Assembly: GCF_003334785.1 (NCBI RefSeq) | Contig: NZ_QOWV01000015.1 | Origin: Escherichia coli | GTDB taxonomy: Bacteria > Pseudomonadota > Gammaproteobacteria > Enterobacterales > Enterobacteriaceae | DNA: 64,000 nt | Strand: one strand, 5' to 3' | Shown: positions 11,693 to 23,529 of the stretch, piece by piece | Numbering within the stretch: position 1 is the stretch's first letter | Layout of the letters: each line of letters starts with the position of its first letter | The notes under the pieces: model-generated | Database searches by the model: none | What the model was told of the DNA's origin: nothing | What the model saw: only the letters and a program-made list of their open reading frames with translations | Translations under genes and position numbers: made by a program

Positions 11693-12871
11693 TTAACCCT
11701 GTACTTTTACCTGTCCGGCGGCGTGCTTCGCGCGCTCAATGGCGTCAACAACACTCTCAGCGGTCGCCAGCGCAACACCCAGACGACGGTTGCCATCAAT
11801 TTCCGGCTTACCAAATAAACGAATCTGCAAATCTGCGCCTACGGCATTCTGCACATTATCAAACGTGACATTCTGACTGGTCAGTTGTGGCAGAATAACG
11901 GCAGAAGCTGCAGGACCATACTGACGGATCCCGCCAACCGGAAGTCCGAGGAAGGCACGTACATGCAGGGCAAACTCTGAGAGATCTTGAGAAATTAACG
12001 TCACCATCCCGGTATCATGTGGACGAGGGGAGACCTCACTGAAAATCACCTCATCACCACAGACAAACAGCTCGACACCAAACAGACCATAACCGCCCAG
12101 TGCCAGCACCACTTTACGGGCAATCTCCTGCGCACGTTCAAGGGCAAGCGGGCTCATTTGCTGTGGTTGCCAGGATTCACGGTAGTCGCCATCTTCCTGG
12201 CGATGACCTACCGGTGCACAGAAATGGACGCCATCCACCGCGCTGACGGTTAGCAAGGTAATTTCGAAGTCAAACTTAACGACGCCTTCAACAATTACGC
12301 GGCCCGCTCCGGCGCGACCGCCTTGCTGAGCGTACTTCCATGCCTGAGCAAGTTGCTCTGCAGAACGAATAAACGTCTGCCCCTTGCCGGAAGAGCTCAT
12401 CACCGGTTTTACAATGCAGGGATAGCCAATGTCAGCAACCGCCTCGCGGAAAAGGCTTTCGCTATCGGCAAAACGATAAGTGGAAGTGGGCAGCTGCAGC
12501 TCTTCTGCCGCCAGGCGACGGATACCCTCGCGATTCATCGTTAATTTCGTTGCGCGAGCGCAGGGGACAACATTCAGTCCTTCCTCTTCAAGTTGGATCA
12601 GCATATCGGTGGCAATAGCTTCGATCTCCGGCACGATATAATGTGGTTTTTCCAGTTCAACCACACGGCGTAATGCATCACCATCAAGCATATTAATGAT
12701 ATGGGAGCGATGCGCGACATGCATGGCTGGTGCGTCGGCATAGCGATCGACAGCAATCACCTCTACGCCGAGACGCTGACACTCGATTGCCACTTCTTTA
12801 CCCAGTTCACCGGAGCCTAATAACATCACGCGAGTTGCTGCCGGACGCAGCGCAGTGCCTAATAACGTCAT
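11693..12871 (-). CDS. purT: Formate-dependent GAR transformylase PurT
   Basis: 392-aa [30 protein letters not shown]..., ATP-grasp fold. Confidence 0.93.
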
Positions 12872-12908
12872 AACGAATATCCCCTGATTAATTCCGCGCG
12901 CAGTATAA

Positions 12909-12926
12909 ACGAAAACGTTTGCGCGT
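12909..12926. promoter_or_regulatory. PurR box upstream of purT
   Basis: CGAAAACGTTTGCGCG matches the PurR operator core (ACGCAAACGTTTTC) about 40 bp upstream of the purT start. Confidence 0.6.
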
Positions 12927-12967
12927 GTCTTTATTGCTGATGTTGATTTCTCAACCGAAAAGAAATA

Positions 12968-12987
12968 TACTGTATAAAATCACAGTT
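12968..12987. promoter_or_regulatory. LexA (SOS) box upstream of yebG
   Basis: TACTGTATAAAATCACAGTT fits CTGT-N8-ACAG; about 20 bp upstream of the yebG start. Confidence 0.7.
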
Positions 12988-13004
12988 ATTATGAGAGGCT
13001 GCAA

Positions 13005-13295
13005 ATGGCGGTTGAAGTTAAATACGTAGTCATTCGTGAGGGCGAAGAGAAAATGTCGTTTACCAGCAAAAAGGAAGCCGATGCTTATGATAAAATGCTT
13101 GATACGGCGGATCTGCTTGACACCTGGCTGACAAATTCTCCAGTGCAAATGGAAGACGAGCAACGTGAAGCCCTTTCGCTATGGCTGGCAGAACAAAAAG
13201 ATGTGCTGAGCACCATTCTGAAAACCGGCAAATTACCGTCCCCACAGGTCGTCGGTGCTGAATCCGAAGAGGAAGATGCCTCACACGCGGCCTGA
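13005..13295 (+). CDS. yebG: DNA damage-inducible protein YebG
   Basis: 96-aa ORF MAVEVKYVVIREGEEKMSFTSKKEADAYDKML...; LexA box upstream. Confidence 0.88.
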   Translation: MAVEVKYVVIREGEEKMSFTSKKEADAYDKMLDTADLLDTWLTNSPVQMEDEQREALSLWLAEQKDVLSTILKTGKLPSPQVVGAESEEEDASHAA

Positions 13296-13313: not shown

Positions 13314-13718
<405 letters not shown>

Positions 13719-14044: not shown

Positions 14045-14704
14045 ATGGCTAACTGGTTAAATCAACTGCAATCCCTGCTTGGGCAAAGCAGTTCTTCTAC
14101 CTCCTCGTCTGCGGATCAGGGATTGGGCAAACTGTTAGTACCAGGCGCATTAGGCGGACTGGCTGGGCTGCTGGTCGCAAATAAATCAGCACGTAAACTT
14201 CTTACGAAATATGGCACCAACGCGTTACTGGTTGGCGGCGGAGCGGTAGCGGGTACGGTGCTGTGGAATAAATACAAAGATAAAATTCGCGCGGCGCATC
14301 AGGACGAACCGCAGTTTGGCGCGCAAAGTACGCCGCTGGATGAGCGTACAGAACGTTTGATCCTTGCGCTGGTCTTTGCCGCTAAAAGTGATGGTCATAT
14401 TGATGCCAAAGAACGTGCGGCAATCGACCAGCAATTGCGTGAAGCCGGCGTGGAAGAGCAGGGGCGTGTACTCATTGAGCAGGCAATCGAACAACCGCTG
14501 GATCCACAACGCCTGGCTACCGGGGTCCGCAATGAAGAAGAGGCGCTGGAAATCTATTTCCTGAGTTGCGCGGCTATTGATATTGACCATTTTATGGAAC
14601 GCAGTTACCTGAATGCACTGGGTGACGCGCTGAAAATCCCCCAGGATGTTCGTGACGGCATTGAACGCGATCTCGAACAGCAAAAACGCACTTTGGCGGA
14701 ATAA
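14045..14704 (+). CDS. yebE: Inner membrane protein YebE (DUF533)
   Basis: 219-aa ORF; Ser-rich N-terminus, glycine-rich hydrophobic segment. Confidence 0.85.
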
Positions 14705-20458: not shown

Positions 20459-20715
20459 AACATTTAAGCTGATGACCACCGCGCTTTTTATTGACCATTT
20501 TGCACGCAAACTGGAAAACCTGGCGTCGTCATCTATTCTTAAAGGGCAAGGCAACTAAGCCTGCATTAATGCCAACTTTTAGCGCACGGCTCTCTCCCAA
20601 GAGCCATTTCCCTGGACCGAATACAGGAATCGTGTTCGGTCTCTTTTTATCTGTTAAAAGCCAGAAGCATTTCCTTCGCTGACTTTATAGTCAACCATAA
20701 CACACACTCTACTGT
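20420..20715 (-). ncRNA. ryeA: RyeA (SraC) antisense RNA overlapping sdsR (ends approximate)
   Basis: RyeA is known to be transcribed opposite SdsR; ends inferred, not read from the sequence. Confidence 0.35.
20546..20648 (+). ncRNA. sdsR: SdsR (RyeB) small RNA
   Basis: GCAAGGCAACTAAGCCTGCATTAATGCC...GACCGAATACAGGAATCGTGTTCGGTCTCTTTTT matches recalled SdsR including its terminator; sits in the yebY-pphA spacer. Confidence 0.75.
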
Positions 20716-22089: not shown

Positions 22090-23529
22090 TCAGGCGTTAC
22101 CGGTAAAAAGTTTCCCATCGCGCACCAGTTCACGCGGATAGCTGTTTTTCAATCGCGAACCAATCCGTTTGGCTAAACCAATCGGTTGATGCTGGAAAGT
22201 AACCAATACATCATCCGCCACTGGCGCGGCTTGCGGGTAAACATCGCGCCCGCGATACCACTCCTCCGCTTCCTGCGGTGTCAGCTCGAATGCATTCATA
22301 TTATCGGGTGAGGCAAGAGCAATAACCGCTTCATGCTGCCAGCGATAACCTTTGTTGTGCGTCTCGGCAAGTTTAATCCCCAACCGAGAAAATCGGACTT
22401 TACCGATCAGGGCTTCAATGCCCACCGGGAACAACCACAGTTCTTTGTCACGCTGCCAGAGGCGCAGGTTTTCATCCCAGTTTAAGCCAACACCTGCAGC
22501 CGCCTGCCGAATTTGTCCAGCTTCGCGATCTTTCACCGGGCTGAACGGAAAATTGCCCACTTTGTATGTTGGGGTGGGTAAGGCGGGAATGGCCTGAGTT
22601 TTACGCAGACGAGCAACGAAGAAGCCTTCGCAGTCGTAAATTTGTGGGAAAACATGCAAAAAGCCTTCTTCGGTCAGCGCTTTGTTTGCAGCAGGGAAGA
22701 GCTCGCCAAGTGGTAAAAACTCTACTGCGTCAGGGTAAGTCTCTTTCAGCCACATGCAAACGGCTTCGTTTTCTTCCCTGTTTAAGGTACAGGTCGAGTA
22801 AACCAGCGTACCACCAGGACGTAATGCATGAAAGGCGCTGTCGATAAGCTCCCGTTGTGTAGCTGCGATTTCCTGATTGCTTTCTGGTGACCAGTTTTTT
22901 AGCGCATCGGGATCTTTACGCACCACGCCTTCGCCAGAGCAGGGAGCGTCCAGCAAAATGGCATCGAACATTTCTGGCACTGCCACACCAAACACGCGGC
23001 CATCAAAATGTGTGAGCGCAACATTACTGATGCCACAGCGGCTGATATTGGCATGTAACACTTTTACCCGACTGGCGGAAAACTCATTGGCAAGGATTGC
23101 CCCTTCGTTATTCATCCGTGCGGCAATTTGCGTCGTTTTGGAGCCTGGCGCAGCAGCGACATCCATCACCCGCTGTGGTGCATTACCGTCAGCAAACAAG
23201 GCGGCGACGGGCAACATTGAACTGGCTTCCTGAATATAAAACAGGCCGCTTAAATGCTCGGCGGTACTACCCAATGGCAATGCATCTTCATTGTCGCGTT
23301 CAATCCAGAAACCTTCTTCACACCACGGAATTGGCGTAAGCGTCCAGCCATAAGGAGCGGTTAATTGCAGGAAATCAGCAACGGAGATTTTCAGCGTATT
23401 AACGCGAATGCTGCGGCGCAACGGGCGCTGACAGGCGGCAAGAAAATCATCAAAAGAGAGCGTCGAAGGCATCGCTTCGCGCATTTGCGTCAGAAAGGCG
23501 TCCGGGAAATAAACGGTGTGTTGGGCCAC
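22090..23529 (-). CDS. rsmF: 16S rRNA m5C1407 methyltransferase RsmF (YebU)
   Basis: NOL1/NOP2/Sun SAM methyltransferase; start set at GTG (479 aa), ATG two codons upstream is the alternative. Confidence 0.88.

Follow-up and report, generated by a model that had tools for sequence, protein, structure and literature searches.

The purT/yebG spacer of Escherichia coli carries a PurR and a LexA operator on two back-to-back promoters that are very probably independent

The window analyzed here, that is, the whole 64-kb stretch of DNA under study, corresponds to the Escherichia coli chromosome and carries the gene order edd-eda-purT<>yebG-yebF. The segment 12400..13400 was matched by 5426 of 5426 complete E. 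coli genomes, whose annotation at this place names purT, yebG, and yebF. On a wider scale, the map runs from znuB to zwf-edd-eda and purT (minus strand), followed by yebG-yebF-yebE-ptrB on the plus strand. The purT coding sequence (11693..12871, minus strand) specifies a formate-dependent GAR transformylase of 392 amino acids and yebG (13005..13295, plus strand) a DNA damage-inducible protein of 96 amino acids, both assigned from their open reading frames and from annotation, in E. coli genomes for purT, while yebF is annotated downstream of yebG at 13362..13718 (plus strand). The ATG start codons of purT and yebG fall at 12871 (minus strand) and 13005 (plus strand), respectively, thus delimiting an intergenic spacer of 133 bp at 12872..13004. 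Reading of the sequence further points to a putative ribosome-binding site for purT, AGGGGA (12880..12885, minus strand), placed 8 nt ahead of the ATG, and to one for yebG, GAGAGG (12993..12998, plus strand), placed 6 nt ahead of the ATG, where GAGGCTGCA is conserved. Elsewhere in the window, Rfam matches at the gathering threshold were found at three places. At 20508-20652, SraC/RyeA on the minus strand and SdsR/RyeB on the plus strand overlap as an antisense pair, while 36141-36601 matches the 5′ region of a cspA-type thermoregulator and 55650-55735 matches sroD. Judging from its map position, we take the thermoregulator region to belong, probably, to the yobF-cspC transcript.

A consensus scan of 12700..13200 returned exactly two sigma-70-like promoters, both located within the spacer. 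The purT promoter, on the minus strand, is composed of a -35 hexamer AAGACA (12926..12931) and a -10 hexamer TATACT (12902..12907) with 18 bp between them, which places the predicted start near 12895. The yebG promoter, on the plus strand, combines a -35 hexamer TTGATT (12943..12948), whose TTGA is kept in most genera, with a -10 hexamer TATACT (12966..12971) after 17 bp. Both hexamer pairs are also printed for the yebG/purT spacer in a study of RpoD-holoenzyme binding by genomic SELEX (Shimada et al. 2014). The two -35 hexamers are separated by a linker of 11 bp (12932..12942, no strand assigned), and the predicted starts of the two genes are divergent and about 83 bp apart. Operator positions relative to +1 were derived from the consensus hexamers, with starts taken ~7 bp past the -10 hexamers, and hence refer to predicted starts. 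A candidate alternative -10 for yebG, TAAAAT (12975..12980), lies exactly 9 bp downstream of TATACT, inside the LexA box described below. A published dissection of both promoters by Sort-Seq (Belliveau et al. 2018, PNAS 115:E4796, PMC6003448) shifted the yebG RNAP site downstream by 9 bp relative to an older computational annotation. TATACT and TAAAAT both overlap the LexA box, and for this reason conservation does not tell them apart; in either register, the operator overlaps the yebG -10. The region in which a -35 matching the downstream TAAAAT would lie (about 12951-12957) is not conserved, and TTGA at 12943-12946 is.

The PurR operator (PUR box) of purT, ACGAAAACGTTTGCGC, occupies 12909..12924 (no strand assigned) and fills the space between the purT -35 and -10 hexamers, the 16-bp box sitting exactly within the 18 bp available. 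Its consensus match, matrix score, conservation, and published binding all point to the same assignment. The box is an imperfect palindrome with a central CG that shows two mismatches to ACGCAAACGTTTGCGT, and no other sequence in the window matched ACGCAAACGTTTGCGT with three mismatches or fewer; by chance, 0.07 matches with at most two mismatches are expected per window. For a quantitative score, the 27 ChIP-chip motifs in Table 1 of Cho et al. (2011, NAR 39:6456, PMC3159470) other than that of purT were combined into a PurR matrix. With this leave-one-out matrix, the purT box reached 22.9 bits (training range 12.0-23.7, median 20.2) and outscored 25 of the 27 ChIP-defined sites, near the top of the known range. 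The best unrelated match in the window with that matrix stood at 14.7 bits. The score obtained with a uniform-background matrix was 23.0 bits (p = 5.8e-9 per position), for which 0.0007 matches are expected in 64 kb on both strands. Counted from the predicted starts, the center of the box falls near -21 for purT and near -61 for yebG; the box lies inside the predicted purT promoter spacer, a position from which a bound repressor would block initiation. The first-pass annotation had called a PurR-like box at 12909..12926; the operator itself is genuine, and only its extent has to be corrected, being two bases too long for a 16-bp box that ends at 12924. Two other PurR-like matches, at 32780..32795 (14.7 bits) and 22754..22769 (14.0 bits), fall inside coding sequences, those of yebQ and rsmF according to the annotation of a near-identical strain. 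Both outscore the weakest ChIP site (12 bits), stay close to the low end of what known sites reach, and are probably due to chance.

The LexA (SOS) box of yebG, TACTGTATAAAATCACAGTT, lies at 12968..12987 (no strand assigned), exactly where it had been placed in the first reading of the sequence, and overlaps the yebG -10 and start site. It belongs to the 20-bp palindrome type TACTGT-(AT)4-ACAGTA with CTG-N10-CAG cores, and its assignment is supported by pattern, matrix, conservation, and published listing. A search of the whole window with the idealized 20-mer palindrome, allowing up to three mismatches, gave no match. Such a search misses the yebG box because five mismatches lie in the AT-rich center of the box, and the idealized 20-mer was replaced by a pattern of the cores only together with a weight matrix. 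The pattern TACTGTAT-N6-ACAGT matched the window at 12968..12987 and nowhere else, with 0.04 matches expected by chance. The LexA matrix was derived from the 17 other boxes in Table 4 of Thomassen et al. (2010), leaving out the yebG box, which is itself listed by these authors. With this leave-one-out matrix, the yebG box scored 22.8 bits (training range 16.7-29.8, median 22.4) and the best unrelated match in the window 12.6 bits. With a uniform-background matrix, the box reached 22.7 bits (p = 1.5e-8 per position), for which both strands of the 64 kb together would yield 0.002 matches by chance. Counted from the predicted starts, its center is at about +1 for yebG and near -82 for purT, and the box covers part of the -10 TATACT and contains the alternative -10 TAAAAT. 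A candidate CRP site within the LexA box (TGTAT-AAAA-TCACA) was rejected, as its half-sites are 4 bp apart, not 6. A LexA-like match, AACTGGTTAAATCAACTGCA, was also seen at 14051..14070, right where the coding sequence of yebE begins; with 12.6 bits, it stays below the weakest known box (16.7) and is probably a chance match. yebE itself is described as only partially LexA controlled (Thomassen 2010).

Matrix scoring was the test that the first-pass annotation had named as able to overturn its reading. Both boxes were found above threshold and were the top matches of the window by 8-10 bits, with a chance expectation of about 0.001-0.002 in the window for each box score. The two operators lie 43 bp apart edge to edge and 61 bp from center to center, in agreement with the earlier estimate of about 40 bp. 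We conclude that both boxes are genuine operators, and the initial proposal that purine-repressor and SOS control act on back-to-back promoters is borne out by the matrix scores, by conservation in 79 species, and by published experiments.

Conservation was assessed in a sample of one genome per species with YebG, which yielded 80 loci from Escherichia, Citrobacter, Salmonella, Kosakonia, Klebsiella, Raoultella, Erwinia, Pantoea, Serratia, Yersinia, and other genera. PurT was encoded upstream of yebG, on the opposite strand, at 79 of the 80 loci. All 79 species carried a PurR box adjoining purT (20.5-25.2 bits) as well as a LexA box adjoining yebG (16.1-29.8 bits). The two genes were directly adjacent in 59 species, belonging to the Enterobacteriaceae and Erwiniaceae, and the spacer measured 128-141 bp in 58 of these. 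Alignment of the 58 spacers with that of the window (59 sequences) showed a clear partition between footprints and intervening DNA. On the purT side, mean identity amounted to 0.98 for the -10, 0.97 for the PurR box, and 0.85 for the -35, and on the yebG side to 0.97 for the -10 and 0.89 for the LexA box; low values were obtained for the linker between the -35 hexamers (0.51), the length of which varies among species, and for the yebG promoter spacer (0.48). Within the same 59 spacers, the CTG and CAG cores of the LexA box were invariant, and 14 of the 16 positions of the PurR box were either invariant or conserved in at least 90% of the sequences. The center-to-center distance between the operators was 59-63 bp in 54 of the 59 adjacent-gene species, and the distances found were 59, 60, 61, 62, 63, 69, 71, 73, and 188 bp.

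Natural rearrangements separate the two operators in several lineages. In the Yersiniaceae (Serratia, Yersinia, Edaphovirga, and Chimaeribacter), a gene for a DEAD-box RNA helicase of 460 amino acids is located between purT and yebG, such that the two genes are 1.7-2 kb and the boxes about 1.6-2.0 kb apart, each box still adjoining its own gene. The helicase gene is on the yebG strand, for example at positions 1030-2412 of our locus L065 from Serratia quinivorans, and likewise at loci L053-L081; from inspection by eye of its resemblance to dbpA, we presume it to be dbpA-like. The LexA box in this family sits in the short spacer between the helicase gene and yebG, in most loci at 24-27 bp from the start codon of yebG. 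A second case is provided by Klebsiella spallanzanii, in which an insertion of 126 bp occupies precisely the linker that separates the -35 hexamers, both boxes being kept at a distance of 188 bp. This insertion (roughly 126 bp, positions 2307-2433 of our locus L048) is absent from K. grimontii and K. oxytoca, and its length and the motif GTACGCTCCCGGGGATGCGC resemble those of an ERIC-type intergenic repeat, which it may be. The two operators thus behave as separable modules in evolution.

The operators and their back-to-back layout at purT/yebG are already known from experimental work. PurR ChIP-chip gave a peak and a motif at purT, stronger with adenine, and purT is directly repressed by PurR, being derepressed in a purR deletion and responsive to adenine status (Cho 2011, PMC3159470). 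The same study located the motif between the -10 and -35 elements at 14 of 32 PurR-regulated promoters. Both promoters of this spacer were subsequently dissected by Sort-Seq in three mutagenized windows of 60 bp, and the authors, who plotted for each promoter only the 60-bp region with apparent regulation, described "directional regulatory features" (Belliveau 2018). For purT, they reported a "simple repression architecture" with a repressor site between -35 and -10 that was present with adenine and gone in a purR deletion, and DNA-affinity mass spectrometry showed PurR enriched on purT DNA only with hypoxanthine (Belliveau 2018, PMC6003448). For yebG, the LexA and RNAP sites were confirmed, along with induction by mitomycin C (Belliveau 2018, PMC6003448); an SOS box at this gene had been reported by Lomba 1997, as cited in Belliveau 2018. 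Expression data are in line with these assignments. yebG is UV-induced, and RT-qPCR in lexA mutants placed yebF under full LexA control together with yebG (Thomassen 2010). A published AZT transcriptome study gave 4.4-fold induction of yebG and 9.7-fold lexA dependence and listed a heterology index of 6.3 for its SOS box, and in AZT transcriptome data purine genes tend downward and purT is listed as SspA-dependent. Moreover, a transcriptome meta-analysis placed purT among down-regulated purine hubs and yebG among up-regulated DNA-repair genes. In these transcriptome data, purT goes with the pur regulon and yebG with the SOS regulon.

Considered as a whole, the purT/yebG spacer very probably consists of two independent simple-repression promoters placed back to back. 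Each operator lies on the gene-proximal side of its own -35, and an 11-bp unconserved linker is all that stands between the two -35 hexamers. When purines are plentiful, a PurR dimer bound to hypoxanthine or guanine would occupy the -35/-10 spacer of purT and exclude RNA polymerase. At yebG, a LexA dimer lying over the -10 and start would block initiation until RecA-stimulated self-cleavage of LexA in the SOS response, after which yebG-yebF would be transcribed. The present analysis supplies the box sequences, their scores and conservation, and the predicted positions, and published work establishes binding and regulation; steric exclusion as the mechanism and the exact start sites are what we infer. 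The layout of the spacer, the natural rearrangements, and the published descriptions of both promoters argue for this independence, and the close packing follows from the short intergenic region; it does not constitute a shared control device.

The first-pass annotation had gone one step further in suggesting that binding of one regulator could affect the other promoter, a claim that we find unsupported, as geometry, Sort-Seq, natural rearrangements, and transcriptomes all argue against it. Some influence between the promoters could nevertheless be exerted without any contact of a regulator, either via the negative supercoils generated by divergent transcription or via polymerase competition for upstream DNA. 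Such indirect coupling would slightly shift purT upon SOS induction of yebG, and yebG upon purine starvation. Coupling by supercoiling is established for closely spaced divergent promoters, e.g., ilvY/ilvC, and the predicted purT and yebG starts are divergent and only about 83 bp apart. RNA polymerase holoenzyme, furthermore, binds the spacer strongly in vitro (Shimada SELEX). However, plasmid-borne Sort-Seq reporters, which read a single direction, reproduced the expected regulation of each promoter (Belliveau 2018), and adjacency is dispensable in the Yersiniaceae. We therefore regard indirect coupling as unlikely, and two independently repressed promoters remain the preferred reading.

Direct cross-talk, in which PurR at 12909..12924 would modulate yebG or LexA at 12968..12987 would modulate purT, appears less probable still. 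The bound regulator might act by touching its neighbor sterically, by bending the DNA, or by disturbing the contacts that RNA polymerase makes upstream, and the dimensions of the spacer lend the idea some appeal, with 43 bp from edge to edge of the operators, 11 bp between the -35 hexamers, and a center spacing of 59-63 bp in 54 of the 59 adjacent-gene species. From general promoter geometry, the alpha-CTD of RNA polymerase can be estimated to reach about -40 to -60. At this spacer, that reach would overlap the -35 of the other promoter and, on the yebG side, would also touch the edge of the PurR box. Against this, PurR sits near -61 of yebG and LexA near -82 of purT, outside the -35 to +1 cores, so that with the predicted starts each operator is found beyond the -35 of the other promoter, and neither has the position of a shared or cross-acting operator. 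Sort-Seq of both promoters gave only direction-specific features, with simple repression for purT. The spacing is not phase-locked either: helical phasing of the operators was considered as a sign of coupling and rejected in view of distances of 59-63, 69, 71, 73, and 188 bp. The near-constant spacing of ~60 bp arises largely because fixed promoter elements fill it, these elements occupying most of the constant length. Adjacency of the operators is not maintained, as they have been pulled apart in the Yersiniaceae, where both persist on either side of a helicase gene, and in Klebsiella spallanzanii. Finally, the publications consulted give no hint that either gene answers to the regulator of the other: the main text of Cho 2011 on the PurR regulon does not mention yebG, and replication stress tends to lower the expression of purine genes, not to raise it.

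A weaker version of the same idea starts from the ~60-bp spacing, nearly constant in the Enterobacteriaceae and Erwiniaceae, which puts a DNA-bending PurR dimer near -61 of yebG and might reflect a real but modest coupling in either direction. Purine status, acting by PurR occupancy or by purT firing and local supercoiling, could then tune the basal or the induced level of yebG-yebF, or SOS could tune purT. If true, such coupling would tie the DNA-damage response to the supply of nucleotides at one locus; we consider it very doubtful. As for the notion that one or both boxes are functionless chance matches, which could appeal to their first having been matched by eye and to the five mismatches of the LexA box to the idealized 20-mer, it has a negligible probability and is already refuted by the matrix (p of 6e-9 and 1.5e-8 per position), by core columns that are invariant in 59 spacers from two families, and by published ChIP, Sort-Seq, affinity purification, and expression data.

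PurR and LexA may not be the only inputs at this spacer. H-NS has been flagged at the purT/yebG spacer (Shimada et al. 2014), and genomic SELEX with RpoS holoenzyme gave its highest peak genome-wide, 390-fold, at the purT 5′ end, together with a 63-fold peak in the spacer itself (Shimada et al. 2017). Converted from K-12 coordinates (U00096.2, 1928972 and 1928846), these two peaks map to about 12804 and about 12930 of the window. In the 5′ part of the purT coding sequence, our consensus scan detected nothing resembling a promoter. The H-NS and RpoS SELEX signals suggest inputs beyond PurR and LexA, and the term "simple" may understate the regulation.

The significance of these observations beyond confirmation is small. 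The locus, a clean, published, textbook-style case in which two simple-repression promoters share a short spacer, has served as a benchmark for massively parallel promoter dissection. Its separable operator modules argue against inferring functional cross-talk from the simple fact that operators lie close together where bacterial intergenic regions are compact.

The K-12 purT/yebG region characterized in earlier work (Belliveau 2018, Cho 2011) is the same locus, and the spacer of the window differs from it at 1 of 133 bases. In both, the PurR site of purT lies between -35 and -10, and the yebG sites for LexA and RNAP are shared as well. The single difference concerns 12924, the outermost base of the PurR box, which is C in the window strain and T in K-12 MG1655. 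Both alleles are widespread, C being present in 1523 and T in 3756 of the 5426 complete E. coli genomes, and T is the commoner base across species (61 of 79). The C costs about 2 bits (23.0 versus 25.1 with the uniform-background matrix), and yields a 16-mer that Cho 2011 (PMC3159470) list as the operator of purHD. Compared with the simple-repression promoters of the pur regulon, the window likewise presents a 16-bp imperfect palindrome with a central CG within the promoter spacer, and no notable difference was apparent. The divergent pair uvrA/ssb resembles purT/yebG in having an SOS box in a short shared spacer. At uvrA/ssb, a single LexA operator serves both directions. In contrast, each promoter of purT/yebG has an operator of its own, distinct from the other and restricted to that promoter, with no sign of LexA control of purT.
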